Assembly (NCBI RefSeq): GCF_016026235.1
Contig: NZ_CP065613.1
Direction: 5' to 3' (one strand)
DNA length: 64,000 nt
DNA from: Escherichia coli
GTDB taxonomy: Bacteria > Pseudomonadota > Gammaproteobacteria > Enterobacterales > Enterobacteriaceae
A program made the translations under genes and the position numbers. Positions within the stretch are counted from its first letter, which is position 1. Every line of letters begins with the position of its first letter. The notes beneath the pieces are model-generated. The model saw only the letters and a program-made list of their open reading frames with translations, was not told the origin of the DNA and searched no databases. Positions 17,402 through 37,296 of this stretch are shown here, piece after piece.

Positions 17402-17833
17402 TTAACCTTTCCGCTCGACGGAAATCATGGTGACAAAAGGATAGCGTTGCCACGGGATTGCCCCGCCTTTCATATACATATGTGAAATCGTACCATCAAG
17501 ATAAAGCAGCTGCTCAACGTTCAGTTTCGCTTTGGCATAACAGGCAAAATCATAAAAATTTGTCGCCTGCTGGCTCAACAAAAACACGGCATTCCCATGT
17601 TTATTAATCCCAACACCGTTACGAATTTTACGTGAGGCGACGTTGGGATGAATACGCGGATTAATTACACCGTTTTCCATCAACATTGGCCCTGACTGCA
17701 CCGCAAACTGAATATCTTTACTGGCTTTAAAAGCATCTAGACGAACGATGCCGACTTTATCTCCCGCGACATAAAACACGCCGCCAGGACGGATAAAGAA
17801 ATTCCCTTCACCTGAAGCGAGATTTAACGCCAC
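17402..17833 (-). pseudogene. yigE: yigE (DUF2233) 3' portion, separated from its 5' portion by IS4
   Basis: 143 aa ORF fragment abutting the IS4 left end; together with 19269-19604 it reconstitutes a ~254 aa protein. Confidence 0.75.
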
Positions 17834-19268
17834 CTTCTGCTGTAATGCCGATCAGTTAAGGATCAGTTGACCGATCCAGTGGCTGTGTAAGAATCCGGAA
17901 ACGCTCACTTGTTTCCGGATTTTTTTATGCACATTGGACAGGCTCTTGATCTGGTATCCCGTTACGATTCTCTGCGTAACCCACTGACTTCTCTGGGGGA
18001 TTACCTCGACCCCGAACTCATCTCTCGTTGCCTTGCCGAATCAGGTACTGTAACGCTACGCAAGCGCCGTCTTCCCCTCGAAATGATGGTCTGGTGTATT
18101 GTTGGCATGGCGCTTGAGCGTAAAGAACCTCTTCACCAGATTGTGAATCGCCTGGACATCATGCTGCCGGGCAATCGCCCCTTCGTTGCCCCCAGTGCCG
18201 TTATTCAGGCCCGCCAGCGCCTGGGAAGTGAGGCTGTCCGCCGCGTGTTCACGAAAACAGCGCAGCTCTGGCATAACGCCACGCCGCATCCGCACTGGTG
18301 CGGCCTGACCCTGCTGGCCATCGATGGTGTGTTCTGGCGCACACCGGATACACCAGAGAACGATGCAGCCTTCCCCCGCCAGACACATGCCGGGAACCCG
18401 GCGCTCTACCCGCAGGTCAAAATGGTCTGCCAGATGGAACTGACCAGCCATCTGCTGACGGCTGCAGCCTTCGGCACGATGAAGAACAGCGAAAATGAGC
18501 TTGCTGAGCAACTTATAGAACAAACCGGCGATAACACTCTGACGTTAATGGATAAAGGTTATTACTCACTGGGACTGTTAAATGCCTGGAGCCTGGCGGG
18601 AGAACACCGCCACTGGATGATACCTCTCAGAAAGGGAGCGCAATATGAAGAGCTCAGAAAACTGGGTAAAGGCGATCATCTGGTGAAGCTGAAAACCAGC
18701 CCGCAGGCACGAAAAAAGTGGCCGGGACTGGGAAATGAAGTGACAGCCCGCCTGCTGACCGTGACGCGCAAAGGAAAAGTCTGCCATCTGCTGACGTCGA
18801 TGACGGACGCCATGCGCTTCCCCGGAGGAGAAATGGCGGATCTGTACAGTCATCGCTGGGAAATCGAACTGGGATACAGGGAGATAAAACAGACGATGCA
18901 ACTGAGCAGGCTGACGCTGAGAAGTAAAAAGCCGGAGCTTGTGGAGCAAGAGCTGTGGGGTGTCTTACTGGCTTATAATCTGGTGAGATATCAGATGATT
19001 AAAATGGCGGAACATCTGAAAGGTTACTGGCCGAATCAACTGAGTTTCTCAGAATCATGCGGAATGGTGATGAGAATGCTGATGACATTGCAGGGCGCTT
19101 CACCGGGACGTATACCGGAGCTGATGCGCGATCTTGCAAGTATGGGACAACTTGTGAAATTACCGACGAGAAGGGGAAGGGCCTTCCCGAGAGTGGTAAA
19201 GGAGAGGCCCTGGAAATACCCCACAGCCCCGAAAAAGAGCCAGTCAGTTGCTTAACTGACTGGCATTA
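17834..19268 (+). mobile_element. IS4 insertion sequence with 12 bp target-site duplication CACCTTCTGCTG
   Basis: Terminal inverted repeats TAATGCCGATCAGTTAAG (left) and CTTAACTGACTGGCATTA (right, 16/18 match); identical 12 bp direct repeats at 17822-17833 and 19269-19280. Confidence 0.9.
17927..19255 (+). CDS. insG: IS4 DDE transposase (442 aa from ATG 17927)
   Basis: Product [30 protein letters not shown]... recognised as IS4-family transposase; inside the IR-bounded element. Confidence 0.88.
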
Positions 19269-19604
19269 CACCTTCTGCTGACCGTTTTCGATGTACAAAC
19301 CGAGCGGCGCATAGCTTTCATCATAGATGCCGCCGTTCATCGCCATCTGCACCTGACCCTGACTATTCATATCCGCCAGCAGAGCATGTAACGTTCCCCA
19401 CGCTTCGCCATTAGCTTTTTGCCAGTACATTTTCACCCGCTCTGTTTGAGGATTAACGGTATACGCCTGTACGGTCAGCGTCGGATCTGAGAGTGCGCAA
19501 TCATCAGCGGCAACAGCAAACAAGGGAAGTAAGGTGAGGGTGAGAAAAATCTGTTTGAGATTCAAGGTGATCATTCCTTTACCAATGAGTAGCCGATGCG
19601 CCAT
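19269..19604 (-). pseudogene. yigE: yigE 5' portion (signal peptide and N-terminal domain), truncated by IS4
   Basis: 112 aa ORF with N-terminal signal peptide (LTLTLLPLFAVAADD) that runs into the IS4 right end. Confidence 0.75.
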
Positions 19605-19973
19605 TATAGGTCCTGGATGTTGGATTTTTTTATCCTGTTAGCGACCTTGACGAGTACCAAAAAGCGCGAAGTTCAACTATTGTTCTGTGGTGTTCTGTTG
19701 CGTGTTGACGGCAAAATTTTGCTGGCGTAACATGCGCGCACGATCACTCTAAGAGGACATTCGCCTTGGACACACCCAGTAGATACTGGCTCACTATCCT
19801 GTCATCCAGGATCAACTCCTAAGGCTATCCCTTTTTGCTGATAGCCTTAGCGGTTGTCAGCGACCTCAATTTTTCCCGTCGCGCTGAGTCAGGCTGTTTA
19901 ATGGTCTGAAACCCAATTTGTTTCTGTGTGCCCACCGAACTGTCCGATATTTTAAGCATTGGGAGTCCCGGTC

Positions 19974-20924
19974 ATGCTGAGCGCATTTCAACTGGAAAAT
20001 AACCGACTGACCCGGCTGGAAGTCGAAGAGTCACAACCCCTTGTAAATGCAGTATGGATTGATCTTGTCGAACCGGACGACGACGAGCGACTGCGCGTAC
20101 AATCTGAACTTGGCCAGAGCCTGGCAACCCGCCCGGAACTGGAAGACATCGAAGCATCGGCACGTTTCTTTGAAGACGACGACGGCCTGCATATTCACTC
20201 CTTCTTCTTCTTTGAAGATGCGGAAGATCACGCCGGTAACTCCACTGTGGCATTTACCATCCGTGATGGTCGTCTGTTTACTCTGCGTGAGCGTGAACTG
20301 CCCGCTTTTCGTCTGTATCGTATGCGTGCCCGTAGCCAGTCGATGGTAGACGGTAACGCCTACGAGCTGCTGCTGGATCTGTTCGAAACCAAAATCGAAC
20401 AGTTGGCAGATGAAATTGAAAATATCTATAGCGACCTGGAGCAGTTGAGCCGGGTGATTATGGAAGGGCATCAGGGCGATGAGTACGACGAGGCGCTCTC
20501 CACTCTGGCGGAACTGGAAGATATCGGCTGGAAAGTTCGCCTGTGTCTGATGGATACCCAGCGCGCGCTCAACTTCCTGGTGCGTAAAGCGCGTTTACCG
20601 GGTGGGCAACTGGAGCAGGCGCGTGAAATCCTGCGAGATATCGAATCCCTGCTGCCGCATAACGAATCCCTGTTCCAGAAGGTGAACTTCCTGATGCAGG
20701 CGGCGATGGGTTTTATCAACATCGAGCAGAACCGCATCATCAAAATCTTCTCGGTGGTATCCGTGGTATTCCTGCCGCCGACGCTCGTTGCTTCCAGCTA
20801 TGGGATGAACTTTGAGTTTATGCCAGAACTGAAGTGGAGTTTCGGCTACCCAGGCGCGATTATCTTTATGATCCTCGCGGGCCTGGCACCGTATCTGTAC
20901 TTTAAGCGCAAGAACTGGCTGTAA
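19974..20924 (+). CDS. corA: Mg2+/Co2+ transport protein CorA (316 aa from ATG 19974)
   Basis: [17 protein letters not shown]...; C-terminal [11 protein letters not shown] signature (GMN motif) and two TM helices. Confidence 0.95.
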
Positions 20925-20977
20925 TATGAGTGCCGGATAAAGCTATTTTTTTATCCGGCTTATTTCTAAAAATTGTC

Positions 20978-21457
20978 TTATTTAAAGTCATGCGGATTGA
21001 AAACTCGCTCTATTTTATTTTCTTGTGTTAATTGATACTCAGTAAAATCGTTAATACCAATATGAGTGTTACGATAAGGGTATTCATTAATAACCATTAA
21101 GTAATTTTTCACGATGCAATTATCATTGCTCTTAATTGTCGGGAAACAGTAGAGATCTTCATACGGCCCTTCGATATATTTTTTATAGTCAGTGAAGCCA
21201 TTACCGATATCAATGACATACCAGGTATGCCAACTACCTTCTGGTAGGGGATGTTGATTTTTAATTTCATTCTGATGCTTCAGATACCAATTTATTTTAT
21301 CGCTGTCAGTCCATGGCAGATGATCAACGACCAGAAAGACTGAATTGCCAGCATCAGAGTATGTATACAAAATCTGTACAGGACGCAATGTCCATAAATT
21401 ATAGATGCAGCATAGAAGAAATAAACATAATATAATTTTCTGGAGTTTGCTTTTCAT
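20978..21457 (-). CDS. Hypothetical protein with N-terminal membrane anchor or signal (159 aa); second gene of low-GC islet
   Basis: ORF with hydrophobic N-terminus (IILCLFLLCCIYNLW) and W/Y-rich soluble domain; start overlaps stop of the upstream 284 aa gene by 4 bp (ATGA); very AT-rich codon usage. Confidence 0.6.
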   Translation of the reverse strand: MKSKLQKIILCLFLLCCIYNLWTLRPVQILYTYSDAGNSVFLVVDHLPWTDSDKINWYLKHQNEIKNQHPLPEGSWHTWYVIDIGNGFTDYKKYIEGPYEDLYCFPTIKSNDNCIVKNYLMVINEYPYRNTHIGINDFTEYQLTQENKIERVFNPHDFK

Positions 21458-22308
21458 AGATAATTTTCGATTCTTTCGATAGTGTTAAAATTGGTGAAAA
21501 AAGGTTTGAAAGCAAAGTCTTTATGCCGTTGTAAAAAGAACCATATGCGAAAAAATCTATATTTGCTGTAAGTCTTGTTTTTGATATCAGTTACATCAAG
21601 ACCGAAGTGGTCCTGTGCTACAAAATGAATTGTTGCACTCCATCCTATAGCGTATTTTTGAAAACTTAAAAGAGATATTTTTTGAGCTGAAATATCATGA
21701 ACACTGATTCCTAAGCCATTAAAACTGTCCTCGAAGTCATTAAATTTATTTAGTCTTGATGAAAGTAATTTGGTTTTAATGCTTTGCAGGATAAGAGGTT
21801 GGTATCCTGTCGAGGGAGTTGAATTAATGCCATTTTCGATACATTCTTTGATTATTCGTATTGGACTATTATAACCATATTTATTTATTTTTTCATGAAA
21901 AGATAAATTTAATTGTTGGCTATGAAAATTGCTGCCATTTCCATATCTAAAATGTTCAATCAGATCTTCGATAAGTGTTTTATATTGTCCAAAAAAGGAA
22001 AGCATTTTTGCTAGTTCTTTCATTTCTGCAAATAAAATATCAGTGCATTCACGTTGTGATATTTTTGTTCCGGAACTTGAGGCACTAAAAGCAACATTAA
22101 TAGAACCTGGGCCAGGGAAATGGTATTTAATAAGTCTGTAAGGATCAACTTTTGCTGAGATATCGCTTAGGCCGAGTGAGAGAAAGTCTTGTTCTACCAT
22201 ATCACCATATTGCATATCATCAGCAGAAAAATCATCGAATAAACTAATAGTTTCGAAAAGTGTACAGGGAATATTAATTGGCGGAAGTAATATGTTATTC
22301 ATTTGCAT
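21454..22308 (-). CDS. Hypothetical cytoplasmic protein (284 aa); first gene of low-GC islet
   Basis: Long ORF in a low-GC segment absent from K-12 as I recall it; no recognisable Walker, GxSxG or nucleotidyltransferase motif on inspection. Confidence 0.6.
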   Translation of the reverse strand: MQMNNILLPPINIPCTLFETISLFDDFSADDMQYGDMVEQDFLSLGLSDISAKVDPYRLIKYHFPGPGSINVAFSASSSGTKISQRECTDILFAEMKELAKMLSFFGQYKTLIEDLIEHFRYGNGSNFHSQQLNLSFHEKINKYGYNSPIRIIKECIENGINSTPSTGYQPLILQSIKTKLLSSRLNKFNDFEDSFNGLGISVHDISAQKISLLSFQKYAIGWSATIHFVAQDHFGLDVTDIKNKTYSKYRFFRIWFFLQRHKDFAFKPFFTNFNTIERIENYL

Positions 22309-22515
22309 TTGCCTTGGTTATATTTAAGCTCAATATCAATTCGAGAACAAATGCTAGGGTAAAAAAATATTTAAAAAAGAAGTACACTTCACATTTTTTC
22401 ATTACATCTCTGAAGAGAACCTCGTTAATGATTGGTCTTGCTCATTGTTAATAACAAAATGTTGAATTTACCGATTAGGAAACTTTTTCCTACGCGGATT
22501 GCCTCCAGTTCTGGC

Positions 22516-22635
22516 ATGAACTTTGAGTTTATGCCAGAACTGAAGTGGGGCTTCGGCTACCCTGGCGCGATTATCTTTATGATCCTCGCGGGCCTGACAC
22601 CGTATCTGTACTTTAAGCGTAAGAACTGGCTGTAA
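22516..22635 (+). pseudogene. corA: Duplicated corA 3' end (last ~39 codons plus stop), ~96% identical to 20805-20924
   Basis: Direct alignment: 115/120 identical; weaker homology continues ~20 bp upstream. ORF track reports a 67 aa ORF ending in the CorA C-terminus. Confidence 0.85.
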
Positions 22636-22659
22636 CTATACGATGTCGCTGTGAGTAAG

Positions 22660-23046
22660 TTAGTGTGCTGACAGCGACATTTTAGCCGAGGGAATCGCAG
22701 ATAACATAATTGTTGTGAATAATATCCATGCCACGTTGAGTTGGACGCTTAATGACTCACATCTCACCCCTTCAATTGCTGCAGAGATAATAGAAAAAAG
22801 TGTCAAACCCAATGAAATCAATACAAAGTAGATTGCCTTACATCCAGTATCTCTTATTCTTTTTGCTCCAATATTGATATTTACATAGGTATTATTAATA
22901 ACCAGAATAAAACTCAAAGCCAGGTTGATATCATTCAAAGTTATTAATATTGACCATGATGTTAATGTATAGATTATGAACTGAAAGCGTGATAAACGCT
23001 CAAGCCTGGATGGGTAGAATATATTTCTGATGGATGATTTGAACAT
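22660..23046 (-). CDS. yigF: Small inner membrane protein (DUF2628-like)
   Basis: 128 aa hydrophobic ORF in the expected position between corA and rarD; low GC. Confidence 0.6.
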   Translation of the reverse strand: MFKSSIRNIFYPSRLERLSRFQFIIYTLTSWSILITLNDINLALSFILVINNTYVNINIGAKRIRDTGCKAIYFVLISLGLTLFSIISAAIEGVRCESLSVQLNVAWILFTTIMLSAIPSAKMSLSAH

Positions 23047-23245
23047 TTTTACATTGTTTTATATATATAATTGTTTTGAATATATATTACCTGAATTATG
23101 TGGTTTGCATATATATATGCAATATAGCAGTCTTTGCATTGATAACTATACAGTAGTAATTTAGAGTGTGTAAGTTTTTATTGATGGGGTATATTTTAAT
23201 TAAATATAATTGAAATGTATTTTTATTCTATAAACAATATCTTGG

Positions 23246-23560
23246 GTGAATGGATTCTATATGGGAAATGGTAACTTTTGGCAGTTGTTCTTGGGTAAAG
23301 AACCTTACAGCAAAAAATCTTATTTTGTTAAGGCATGGTTATTGTGGTGGGCTATTACCATCCTTGTTCTATTTATTTTAAGCCTGACTACGACATTAAA
23401 TTTAAGAAGTATAGGTATAGGGTTAAGTTTTGGGTTTTGTCAAATTCTTGGTAGATATACGATGTCTCTAGGATGGAGTAAGTACTGGGGAGTTTTGGGG
23501 GTATTTCCTGTAACAAATATTGTTCTTTTTCTTATCTTAATTTTTTTCAAAAAAAGATAA
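23246..23560 (+). CDS. yigG: Small inner membrane protein
   Basis: 104 aa ORF with two predicted TM segments, divergent from yigF; low GC. Confidence 0.5.
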   Translation: MNGFYMGNGNFWQLFLGKEPYSKKSYFVKAWLLWWAITILVLFILSLTTTLNLRSIGIGLSFGFCQILGRYTMSLGWSKYWGVLGVFPVTNIVLFLILIFFKKR

Positions 23561-23606
23561 ATAAGTCAGTGGGTAGGCTCTTTAAACGGCCTACCCATGT
23601 TAATTC

Positions 23607-24494
23607 TTAACTTTTTCTACGCTGCGTATAAATCGCATCCATCACAAAAATTGCCAGCGCCACCCAAATAAAGGCGAAAGTCACCATCTTATCGGCACCC
23701 GGTTTTTCACCATAAAACGTCACAGCCAGCAGGAACATCAGCGTCGGGCCAATGTACTGGAAAAAGCCTAACGTTGAGAGACGCAAGCGCGTGGCAGCGG
23801 CGGTAAAACACAACAGCGGTACGGTAGTGACAATACCGGCGGCGATCAGCAGTAAATTCAGCGACATCGGGTTTTGCCCCATATGGCTGGTTGAGCTGTC
23901 GGCAATAGCAAACAGGTAAATTGCCGCCACGGGCAGCAGCCACATGGTTTCGATTAACATGCCGGTTTGCGCTTCAACGGCAATCTTCTTGCGTACCAGA
24001 CCGTAGAAGGCAAAACTAAATGCTAGCCCCAGCGCGATAATAGGTAGCGAACCAAAAGTCCACAGCTGGACCAACACGCCACATATCGCCAGAATCACCG
24101 CCAGCCATTGCATCCGGCGGAATCGCTCGCCGAGGAAAATCATCCCCAGCACAATGTTCACCAGCGGGTTAATAAAGTAACCAAGGCTCGCTTCCAGCAT
24201 ATGGTGATTGTTCACCGCCCAGATAAACAGTAGCCAGTTGCCACCAATCAGCACGGCAGAGACTGCCAGCATAAAAATTTTCTGTGGCGTCTGAATCAGC
24301 GTTTTTAAATAGGACCACTGGCGGCAAATGCTCATCAGCACCACCATAAAGAAAAACGACCAGATCACGCGATGCGTCAGGATTTCATCGGCGGGCACGT
24401 AGTAAATCAACTTGAAGTACGCTGGCGCTATACCCCAAATAAAATAAGCGGCAAGAGCGAGTAATACGCCCTGCCGCGTTTGTTTTGCATCCAT
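23607..24494 (-). CDS. rarD: EamA/DMT-family transporter RarD
   Basis: 295 aa, 10-TM DMT-like profile; conserved position. Confidence 0.88.
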   Translation of the reverse strand: MDAKQTRQGVLLALAAYFIWGIAPAYFKLIYYVPADEILTHRVIWSFFFMVVLMSICRQWSYLKTLIQTPQKIFMLAVSAVLIGGNWLLFIWAVNNHHMLEASLGYFINPLVNIVLGMIFLGERFRRMQWLAVILAICGVLVQLWTFGSLPIIALGLAFSFAFYGLVRKKIAVEAQTGMLIETMWLLPVAAIYLFAIADSSTSHMGQNPMSLNLLLIAAGIVTTVPLLCFTAAATRLRLSTLGFFQYIGPTLMFLLAVTFYGEKPGADKMVTFAFIWVALAIFVMDAIYTQRRKS

Positions 24495-35734: not shown

Positions 35735-35775
35735 TGGCCGGACAAGGCGTTCACGCCGCATCCGGCATGAACAAC
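35735..35775. repeat. REP element
   Basis: GGCCGGACAAGGCGTTCACGCCGCATCCGGCATGAACAA downstream of metE. Confidence 0.65.
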
Positions 35776-35913
35776 GCGCACTTTGCCAATAATCTGATGG
35801 CTTCCATCACCGGAAGCCATTTTGCTATCTGCGCCCGTTCAGATACAGAAATAACCGAATCATTTTTACGCAAAATATAATCCTGAGCGATTTGTTCAGT
35901 AATCAACGCTACG

Positions 35914-36189
35914 TTATTTATTCTCACTTTTCACGAAATTGTATCCCTTTTCAGTAACGTGGTAGTGAGGCATAGACTTATGTCCGCTATCCTCAATAAT
36001 AACCAAACCCTCGTTAGCTAATTTGTTAACAATGTTAACAACATTACCGAATCCTGGAATTTGCCTTATGGATAGTGTGCGATCGAGATTCATCCAGTTC
36101 CAGTTTATATCTTTCTCAGCCATAACTTTCAGTACGTTAATTTCAGTTTCAGTTATCATAGTCAAGTGCATCCTGGTGGTATAAGTCAT
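35914..36189 (-). CDS. Small hypothetical protein, candidate immunity protein for the upstream Hcp-ET toxin (up to 91 aa; true start may be an internal Met)
   Basis: ORF immediately downstream of, and overlapping, the 3' end of the toxin-domain ORF; the usual toxin-immunity gene arrangement. No homology check possible here. Confidence 0.45.
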   Translation of the reverse strand: MTYTTRMHLTMITETEINVLKVMAEKDINWNWMNLDRTLSIRQIPGFGNVVNIVNKLANEGLVIIEDSGHKSMPHYHVTEKGYNFVKSENK

Positions 36190-37296
36190 TAAGTTCTCCC
36201 TTAAGTTTATAATCTTCTAGAGTAGCAGTATGCGTATGATTCCAGAGTGCATAGCCTGCGTCACCATCAGGTTGTCCTGTTTCCCAACCAAGATTACAGT
36301 AACGCTGATATTCCCGACACTCATGAGTATAGAAGTTAAGATCTACTTGTTCTGGGGGGATTTTTCCTTTCTCAATGTCTTTCAGTCTATTGATCATCAC
36401 TTCATTTACAGGGTCATGACCAAATCTGGCTATGTGTTTTTCAACAATAGCGATACCTTCCCTGTTGATTGTTACGCCATCTGTCGTCAGATTTTCTATT
36501 GGACCACCGGCAAGGTCGGGATTAAATGGTCTTCCTGATACTGCTCCTCTGGCTCCGAAATGCTCAAGTGATTCCAAATCAGGGAGTCTCATTCTCCCCA
36601 GAACTGCTCCAGCAACTATTGAAGCACCAGCGATGAGTAACCCTTTGTTATCCATAAATTGATCGTAACCAGCAGGTGCATCTCCCCCCAACTTGTCTGC
36701 TGTTTCCCTGAATCCTTCGATATTCCCATTGTATATGCCGCCAGCAGCAAGCAGTCTGCCAACCGCTTTACTATTAAGTGTTTTGAACCATTACCAGCTT
36801 TAGTTTTTGGCCGTGGTATAAACAGACGGTTGTAGTTATCGGGAAATGCCAAATAACTAAATTCAGTATTAGCAATCAGATGCCTGGAGAGTATATATTC
36901 ATAACTGACAGTGATGGCTTCTGTATCCAGATTGTTCTCAGTAAACAGGTGATTGATTGCTGATAAGAGCGCGCCGCGGAGTTGAATGTTGTAATATTTC
37001 TCCCATCGACCAAACCTATTGATCCGATAGAAGTCAAACTCCATGAACAACTGCTCGTTATTGTTAATAGCGTTAATAAGTAACGGGGAGCTTTTGTCAA
37101 TCAATTTACAGAAACTAAGGCCATGCAATTATGACCCTTTGCCTGTATTCGTAATACTATTAGAGAGCGAGAACGCGAAGATTTCATCATCATGGCCAAT
37201 CTGCCAGCGATTACCTATTGATGCGCTCGTTCCACAACGAGAGGAAATACATCCTTGTTGTTCTCCGGTTATGGTCAGGTAAATAATATCACTCAT
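36149..37296 (-). pseudogene. hcp: T6SS Hcp with C-terminal extended toxin domain (Hcp-ET type), broken by an in-frame TAA and a frameshift
   Basis: Minus-strand ATG at 37296 encodes MSDIIYLTITGEQQGCISSRCGTSASIGNRWQIGHDDEIFAFSLSNSITNTGKGS*, an Hcp N-terminal signature; same frame continues after the TAA (37129-37131) with ...KLIDKSSPLLINAINNNEQLFMEFDFYRINRFGRWEKYY... (Hcp core); a frame change near 36745 joins it to a ~180 aa C-terminal domain. Confidence 0.7.

Follow-up and report, generated by a model that had tools for sequence, protein, structure and literature searches.

A DUF3289/DUF943 gene pair between corA and rarD of Escherichia coli is probably an orphan antibacterial effector-immunity cassette

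Introduction

What is the role of a small, low-GC two-gene operon that sits among housekeeping genes of an Escherichia coli chromosome? The question is raised by a 64,000-nucleotide stretch of E. coli DNA (contig NZ_CP065613.1, referred to here as the window), in which two minus-strand open reading frames (ORFs) encoding proteins of 284 and 159 amino acids lie between corA and rarD within the gene order uvrD, yigE, corA, rarD, yigI, pldA, and recQ. An earlier note, made from the letters of this DNA, regarded the pair as uncharacterised and could place neither product in a known family. It offered two readings of the layout, a periplasm-acting effector with a membrane-anchored immunity protein of the kind carried by type VI secretion systems (T6SS), or a small abortive-infection or defence module.

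We consider it likely that the pair belongs to the DUF3289/DUF943 class of antibacterial effector-immunity cassettes, as an orphan of the kind carried as T6SS cargo. The grounds provided by this analysis are the families and folds of the two proteins, their topology, the conservation of the genes as a pair and under purifying selection, the occurrence of PAAR fusions among relatives, and the distribution, while the literature on relatives contributes periplasmic toxicity with rescue by DUF943, T6SS-dependent secretion, and a crystal complex. For this pair itself we infer delivery by an E. coli T6SS, direct binding of the two proteins, and the biochemical target. The effector-immunity assignment of DUF3289 and DUF943 is already known, having been published in 2024-2025, and RefSeq annotates the genes by family name, so that the description of the pair as uncharacterised was mistaken.

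Results

The two genes encode DUF3289 and DUF943 proteins

The positions and strand of the two coupled ORFs are as first described (Table 1), with the ATGA at 21454-21457 serving as effector stop and immunity start in a 4-nucleotide overlap. The 284-residue protein scores 436.6 bits against TIGR03034 (cut-off 156.45), covering profile positions 1-274 of 274, and matches Pfam DUF3289 (PF11692) with E = 1.7e-83 over model positions 2-270 of 272, a match that spans residues 12-280 of 284. It is a member of the DUF3289/TIGR03034 (YPO3983) family. The 159-residue protein matches Pfam DUF943 with E = 1.7e-26 and is a member of that family; the failure of the earlier note to find a family for either product is thereby corrected. 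These two Pfam matches are strong, and five E. coli alleles with DNA differences of up to 12% all keep both genes intact, so the ORFs are real genes and not chance reading frames. RefSeq places the effector start of matching genomes two codons later, at window position 22302, giving a gene of 849 nucleotides and a protein of 282 residues. This start has an AAGG about 9 nucleotides upstream and is likely the true one.

Homologues of the effector fall into 463 representative clusters at E up to 0.001. Conservation was scored on an alignment of 55 homologues with identity down to 23%, in which H234, F235, G236, D241, W256, L259, Q260, P269, and F270 are invariant and D205, D233, L237, and D238 nearly so. 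The window protein carries the consensus residue at every one of these columns. The conserved core is D233-H234-F235-G236-L237-D238-x-x-D241 together with W256, L259, Q260, P269, and F270. The structure model of the effector (mean predicted local distance difference test score, pLDDT, 91.1; predicted template modelling score, pTM, 0.87) has the same fold as BtpeA, a solved member of the family, and PDB sequence searches, whether with the single protein or with the family profile, returned BtpeA entries only. The protein has no export signal or membrane segment, its Kyte-Doolittle 19-residue mean reaching a maximum of 1.44, which agrees with the cytoplasmic location first proposed for it.

The hydrophobic N-terminal anchor noticed earlier in the 159-residue protein is also found by a Kyte-Doolittle scan, where the 19-residue mean exceeds 1.6 only in windows starting at residues 5-9 (residues 5-27). 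Three lysines, K2, K4, and K7, precede this segment, and an alignment of 52 DUF943 sequences contains an invariant cysteine pair, C104 and C114. The structure model (mean pLDDT 90.4) consists of a helix at residues 2-23 followed by an alpha/beta domain. Since the N-terminal segment is the only one, is preceded by the lysines, and is accompanied by invariant cysteines, the protein fits a predicted N-in, C-out anchor carrying a disulfide-bonded periplasmic domain, a placement that fits the compartment in which DUF3289 toxins act. The features of DUF943 membership, a profile match, an N-terminal anchor with a periplasmic domain, and a position directly downstream of a toxin gene, are thus all present. 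The window allele stops early, at 159 residues (ending PHDFK), where other E. coli alleles encode 163-165 residues (for example, ending EKDNFQQ).

Models of both proteins match a solved effector-immunity complex

A crystal structure has reportedly been determined for the DUF3289 effector BtpeA of Bacteroides fragilis in complex with BtpiA, the cognate immunity protein (Li et al., Cell Host Microbe, 2025, pmid 41072405). The PDB entries of this system are 9jdi, 9jg8, and 9jg9, and the models of the E. coli effector and of the DUF943 protein match the two chains of the complex in 9jdi. This two-chain match of predicted structures is the strongest evidence here that the pair would comprise a toxin and a directly binding immunity protein.

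Experiments on other relatives point in the same direction. A PAAR-DUF3289 protein encoded in a T6SS operon of Yersinia pseudotuberculosis IP32881 (T6EC1) is toxic to E. coli only if targeted to the periplasm, where it causes cells to round, and is counteracted by T6IC1, a DUF943 protein with a transmembrane segment at residues 7-26 and the remainder in the periplasm; in the authors' proposal, DUF3289 acts as a cell-wall toxin resembling colicin M and DUF943 as its immunity protein (Mol Syst Biol 2024, PMC11148199). The 9jdi complex and this published rescue suggest that the two E. coli proteins would likewise bind and that the second would neutralise the first. An orphan DUF3289 protein of Aeromonas jandaei DSM 7311 (WP_042032936.1) was found in the T6SS-dependent secretome, and competition assays established it as a true effector-immunity pair with its downstream gene (PLoS Biol 2025, PMC12135965). 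In a survey of Klebsiella, DUF3289 and DUF943 clusters were linked 780 times in one T6SS type (PMC12469244). The family assignments, these published experiments, and the chain matches to BtpeA-BtpiA together support the earlier suggestion of a periplasm-acting effector with a membrane-anchored immunity protein. The host of the published toxicity and rescue assays was BL21 (PMC11148199). Because BL21 itself carries the island described here, its chromosomal DUF943 evidently gave no protection against the Yersinia toxin in those assays.

The pair is conserved as a unit

Whether the two genes are conserved together had been left as a check on the effector-immunity idea, and they are: the order of DUF3289 followed by DUF943 and the overlap of stop and start are kept in homologous pairs at 52% and 41% identity. 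These pairs lie at other sites, one beside rlmG and the other between a GNAT gene and valS, while in Salmonella enterica the pair occupies the same corA-rarD site as in E. coli, giving three different chromosomal sites across the relatives. Because order and overlap persist at diverged identity and at different sites, the module is a conserved two-gene unit, often an orphan amid housekeeping genes. The intact Salmonella effector has glycine in place of the nearly invariant D238 (DHFGLG; loci L020, L021, and L022 read).

Among the relatives, protein P0050, 39% identical to the window effector, has a PAAR domain (E = 8.2e-7) ahead of a complete DUF3289 domain. At its locus (L016), two PAAR-DUF3289 genes are lined up with four DUF943 genes and one DUF3289 fragment, as is typical of polymorphic-toxin loci that carry spare immunity genes. 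Trabulsiella carries two tandem DUF3289/DUF943 pairs and an extra DUF943 gene.

The island is widespread and both genes are under purifying selection

The interior of the island is present in 2648 of 5426 complete E. coli genomes at 88% to 100% identity, always on the chromosome and nearly always as a single copy. Carriers include O157:H7, the avian pathogenic E. coli (APEC) strain IMT5155, and BL21 (NZ_CP053601.1), in which the island is intact and 98.6% identical; K-12 lacks it. The pair is an ordinary accessory island, and its foreign-looking composition, to which the earlier note had drawn attention, is evident from a GC content of 0.32 over 1.56 kb compared with 0.515 across the whole window.

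Comparison of the window with a B2-type allele gave ratios of non-synonymous to synonymous substitution (dN/dS) of 0.17 for the effector and 0.18 for the immunity gene, and the pair is under purifying selection in E. coli. Synonymous divergence (dS) of the effector is 0.45, more than fourfold the value of 0.097 in the adjacent corA. The divergence is mosaic, with breakpoints near 21530, at the 3' end of the effector gene, and near 21090, inside the immunity gene (against L011 and L012). Strain EFF60 combines a B2-type effector, 88% identical to that of the window, with a window-type immunity gene (99.8%).

At least five haplotypes of the corA-rarD spacer occur across E. coli. K-12 has yigF-yigG only; BL21 has the island, a remnant of the corA 3' end, and then yigF-yigG; the window and O157:H7 have the island and the remnant followed by other small membrane ORFs; in APEC IMT5155 and EFF60 the island abuts rarD without a remnant, as in Salmonella; and EM18-18-42 retains an IS1 deletion scar with 147 nucleotides of the DUF943 gene. 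In the window, 147-nucleotide direct repeats of the corA 3' end flank the island (Table 1). The right-hand repeat is the corA remnant, a dead fragment that may have been left by a recombination in which one spacer haplotype was stacked on an alternative one. Set against K-12, the native copy of the corA 3' end could not be told from the other, the six discriminating sites being mixed.

The locus is an orphan with respect to T6SS genes

Several observations weigh against a role as T6SS cargo. No T6SS gene adjoins the pair, and genetic linkage is therefore lacking at the locus itself, the direct neighbours being corA, the corA remnant, the small membrane ORFs, and rarD. Pfam and NCBIfam scans of the effector detected DUF3289 alone and no delivery domain. 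The only T6SS-related content of the window is a decayed Hcp-toxin locus about 14 kb away between metE and ysgA, and in the reference strain that is 100% identical to the window over 20700-22900, the stretch of corA and the island (FDAARGOS_943), the T6SS at aspV (L010; NZ_CP065615.1, 2,654,191-2,675,174), which encodes Hcp, VgrG, Tle1, TssB, TssE, TssF, and TssG, has tssC split by IS21 and a second vgrG truncated by IS600. BL21 carries the island and has no T6SS at aspV, the sole locus looked at. A consensus scan of the region upstream of the effector found no convincing sigma-70 promoter, with four promoter-like sites compared with 8.1 expected from shuffled sequence, and a literature search found no paper with an experimental test of the E. 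coli DUF3289 protein.

The locus is thus an orphan, and T6SS linkage holds only at the level of the family, through the PAAR fusions and the Yersinia T6SS operon. The co-occurrence with T6SS and PAAR genes that the earlier note proposed to look for is accordingly found in relatives (PAAR-DUF3289 at L016) and not at the E. coli locus.

The decayed Hcp locus, which the earlier note had cited as a sign of T6SS-related cargo in this lineage, is real. The hcp frame is shifted, leaving pieces of 55 and 170 residues, and is followed by a 180-residue toxin ORF annotated by RefSeq as 'colicin' and by ORFs of 91 and 58 residues that look like immunity genes. FDAARGOS_943 has an IS1 in this Hcp-toxin locus where the window has none, and another IS1 at its aspV locus among DUF3304 genes next to the Tle1-type effector.

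Colicin M and the biochemical target

By analogy with the characterised relatives, the effector is supported as a putative cell-wall toxin acting in the periplasm. Cleavage of lipid II, as by colicin M, is a possible but tentative reading of its activity, and we would sooner expect it to fail than to hold. The colicin M sequence was validated against PDB 2xmx and aligned with the DUF3289 family profile using hhalign. The comparison fell short of significance (E = 0.57). Its best register brings only H235 and G237 of colicin M onto H234 and G236 of DUF3289, with D226, Y228, and D229 of colicin M on columns that are not conserved in DUF3289. The family-profile search of the PDB did not retrieve colicin M, nor did the DUF943 model retrieve the colicin M immunity protein Cmi. 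In view of these results, lipid II is no more than a hypothetical target.

Distant DUF3289 domains lie at the C terminus of proteins of 600-1450 residues (P0132, P0135, P0163, P0170, and P0181). The partner modules of these proteins are peptidoglycan-hydrolase or SleB-like, SH3 or EntFM-like wall-binding, VWA, or DNRLRE modules, a hint that use of the toxin domain may extend beyond T6SS contexts and perhaps to Gram-positive bacteria. In the ten longest family members the N-terminal fusion partners are peptidoglycan-binding, SH3-like, VWA, and DNRLRE modules, with no VgrG or Rhs among them, which is suggestive of a cell-wall context.

Other features of the locus

The hairpin between the convergent stop codons of corA and the DUF943 gene is likely a terminator, at least for corA. 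A scan of positions 19500-24000 against Rfam gave no match at E up to 0.1. Two small hydrophobic ORFs with a GC content of 0.32 stand between the corA remnant and rarD in the place of K-12 yigF/yigG. The larger has no similarity to K-12 YigF, has no RefSeq annotation in FDAARGOS_943, and has a sub-threshold match only to NCBIfam NF008474 (26 bits, cut-off 217). On the other side of corA, an IS4-family element encoding a 448-residue transposase splits yigE; at 80% or more query coverage, this insertion was found in 14 of 5426 genomes, none of them exact, the best being 99.3% identical in two pieces.

Table 1. Coordinates of the gene pair and of surrounding features in the window
Feature	Position	Strand	Remark
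Effector gene, DUF3289/TIGR03034 (YPO3983 family), 284 aa	21454..22308	-	No signal peptide or transmembrane segment; predicted cytoplasmic in producer
Immunity gene, DUF943, 159 aa	20978..21457	-	N-terminal inner-membrane anchor and predicted periplasmic alpha/beta domain
Low-GC (0.32) accessory island, whole	20925..22488	.	Missing from K-12; in BL21 between corA and yigF
3' end of intact corA, left copy of 147-nt direct repeat	20778..20924	+	
corA' remnant, right copy of repeat	22489..22635	+	91% identical to left copy; RefSeq: partial CorA pseudogene
Hairpin, 11-bp stem, between convergent corA and DUF943 stop codons	20932..20959	+	
AT-rich region upstream of effector	22309..22488	-	Presumed location of operon promoter
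Small hydrophobic ORF, 128 aa	22660..23046	-	
Small hydrophobic ORF, 104 aa	23246..23560	+	
IS4-family element	17909..19255 (transposase, 448 aa)	+	
yigE fragments	17402..17833, 19266..19604		
Decayed Hcp-toxin locus, whole	35751..37296	-	
Frameshifted Hcp	36616..37296	-	
Toxin ORF and two small ORFs after Hcp	35751..36691	-	

Discussion

The most probable explanation of the locus can be stated as a mechanism. The DUF3289 protein (282-284 residues), which has no export signal, would be synthesised in the cytoplasm, attached to the T6SS spike or tube as non-covalently bound cargo, and injected into the periplasm of a neighbouring Gram-negative cell, where it would damage the cell wall and lead to rounding and lysis. 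The effector is probably a metal-dependent hydrolase acting through the invariant D-H-F-G-L-D-x-x-D centre, and, as with colicin M, its target may be a precursor of peptidoglycan that is linked to a lipid. The DUF943 protein, translated together with the effector, would be held in the inner membrane by its N-terminal helix, with the disulfide-bonded periplasmic domain positioned to bind and block toxin from sister cells.

A cassette of the same family might instead no longer serve as a weapon in this genome and persist as a defensive or selfish relic, in which DUF943 would guard against DUF3289 toxins fired by neighbouring cells, while the effector would owe its retention to its coupling with the immunity gene or to a loss that is recent. 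This reading partly overlaps the one we prefer, differing from it on current use only, and we judge it unlikely, though it deserves serious attention. The disrupted T6SS of the closest reference strain and the state of BL21 are in its favour, as are a widespread Salmonella variant (L020, the commonest variant read, at 21 places) in which a 1-nucleotide deletion frameshifts the effector near codon 164 and leaves DUF943 intact, the additional orphan DUF943 genes of Trabulsiella and L016, and the E. coli strain left with only a scar after IS1-mediated deletion. However, all five E. coli alleles examined retain an uninterrupted effector ORF, the window protein keeps every family-invariant residue, and what is seen of the T6SS in carriers is confined to the aspV locus. 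Because the effector dN/dS of 0.17 was sustained over a dS of 0.45, which indicates long-term purifying selection on the toxin and not on the immunity gene alone, we favour a toxin that is in use.

We also considered that the stand-alone enterobacterial DUF3289 proteins might not be lipid II phosphodiesterases of the colicin M type and that D-H-F-G-L-D-x-x-D with W256 and Q260 might form a distinct centre directed at another envelope substrate. In E. coli such a protein might act without a T6SS, being set free by lysis or in vesicles, or as a selfish, addiction-like element, which would agree with purifying selection on an intact toxin where the T6SS of a lineage is absent or disrupted. We hold this combination to be improbable.

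Under a reversal of roles, DUF3289 would be a T6SS adaptor or chaperone and DUF943 the toxin. This was the first published reading, in a 2021 preprint that reported no toxicity of DUF3289 in the cytoplasm and toxicity to E. coli on over-expression of DUF943 from Aeromonas (10.1101/2021.10.07.463556). The same group, however, switched the assignment after sending DUF3289 to the periplasm (PMC11148199). DUF3289 takes the C-terminal toxin position behind PAAR, surplus DUF943 copies accumulate at loci as immunity genes do, and in the solved complex the chain named as effector is the DUF3289 one, the chain resembling DUF943 being named as immunity protein. Over-expressed membrane proteins are often toxic non-specifically. 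The reversed assignment is largely refuted, and we find it scarcely credible.

The alternative of a two-gene anti-phage abortive-infection or defence system, which the earlier note had kept beside the effector-immunity pair, draws on a generic layout only, that of a small two-gene operon in low-GC accessory DNA, but no PADLOC model matched either protein, even with E allowed up to 1, housekeeping genes and no defence island surround the pair, and the family is tied to PAAR and T6SS with a toxin that acts in the periplasm, so that we give this idea hardly any weight. Equally far-fetched is the idea of a bacteriocin resembling colicin M that needs no T6SS, being released and then taken up via an outer-membrane receptor; the E. 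coli DUF3289 protein has no colicin translocation or receptor domains.

As a discovery, the effector-immunity cassette has little significance, the assignment of its families being published and their names already in RefSeq. What the analysis provides is a functional label for a cassette that roughly one E. coli genome in two carries, O157:H7, APEC, and BL21 among them, and a qualification of the popular label of 'colicin M homologue', which has weak fold similarity, without the catalytic motif, as its basis. In addition, the corA-rarD spacer, with its haplotypes, mosaic alleles, and shared site in Salmonella, offers a natural system for studies of the gain, exchange, and loss of an orphan cassette.

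Comparison with known systems

The E. coli pair can be set beside four known systems. One is colicin M with its relatives PaeM, syringacin M, and pectocins M1 and M2 and the immunity protein Cmi, a system without significant sequence or profile similarity to the E. coli pair; the colicin M motif D226-x-Y228-D229-x5-H235-R236 is not conserved in DUF3289. BtpeA and BtpiA share the folds of the E. coli proteins at only 21% and 11% identity for effector and immunity protein, respectively. BtpeA is a protein of 608 residues with a long N-terminal region that is loaded through the dedicated adaptor BtapC in a Bacteroidota T6SS; at the level of sequence, the searches run gave no match between BtpiA and the DUF943 profile.

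A third system is that of T6EC1 and T6IC1 of Yersinia, which belong to the same two Pfam families and share the order of toxin followed by immunity gene and the topology of the immunity protein. T6EC1 differs in that its toxin domain is joined covalently to a PAAR spike tip and its gene lies in a T6SS operon, whereas the E. coli DUF3289 protein is stand-alone and encoded between corA and rarD with no T6SS gene nearby. In this respect it resembles the A. jandaei DUF3289 protein, also a stand-alone orphan away from T6SS genes. The A. jandaei immunity protein is of another kind, with 95 residues and a signal peptide as well as three transmembrane helices, and is not a DUF943 protein. The A. jandaei orphan is the best precedent for a possible delivery of the E. 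coli copy.

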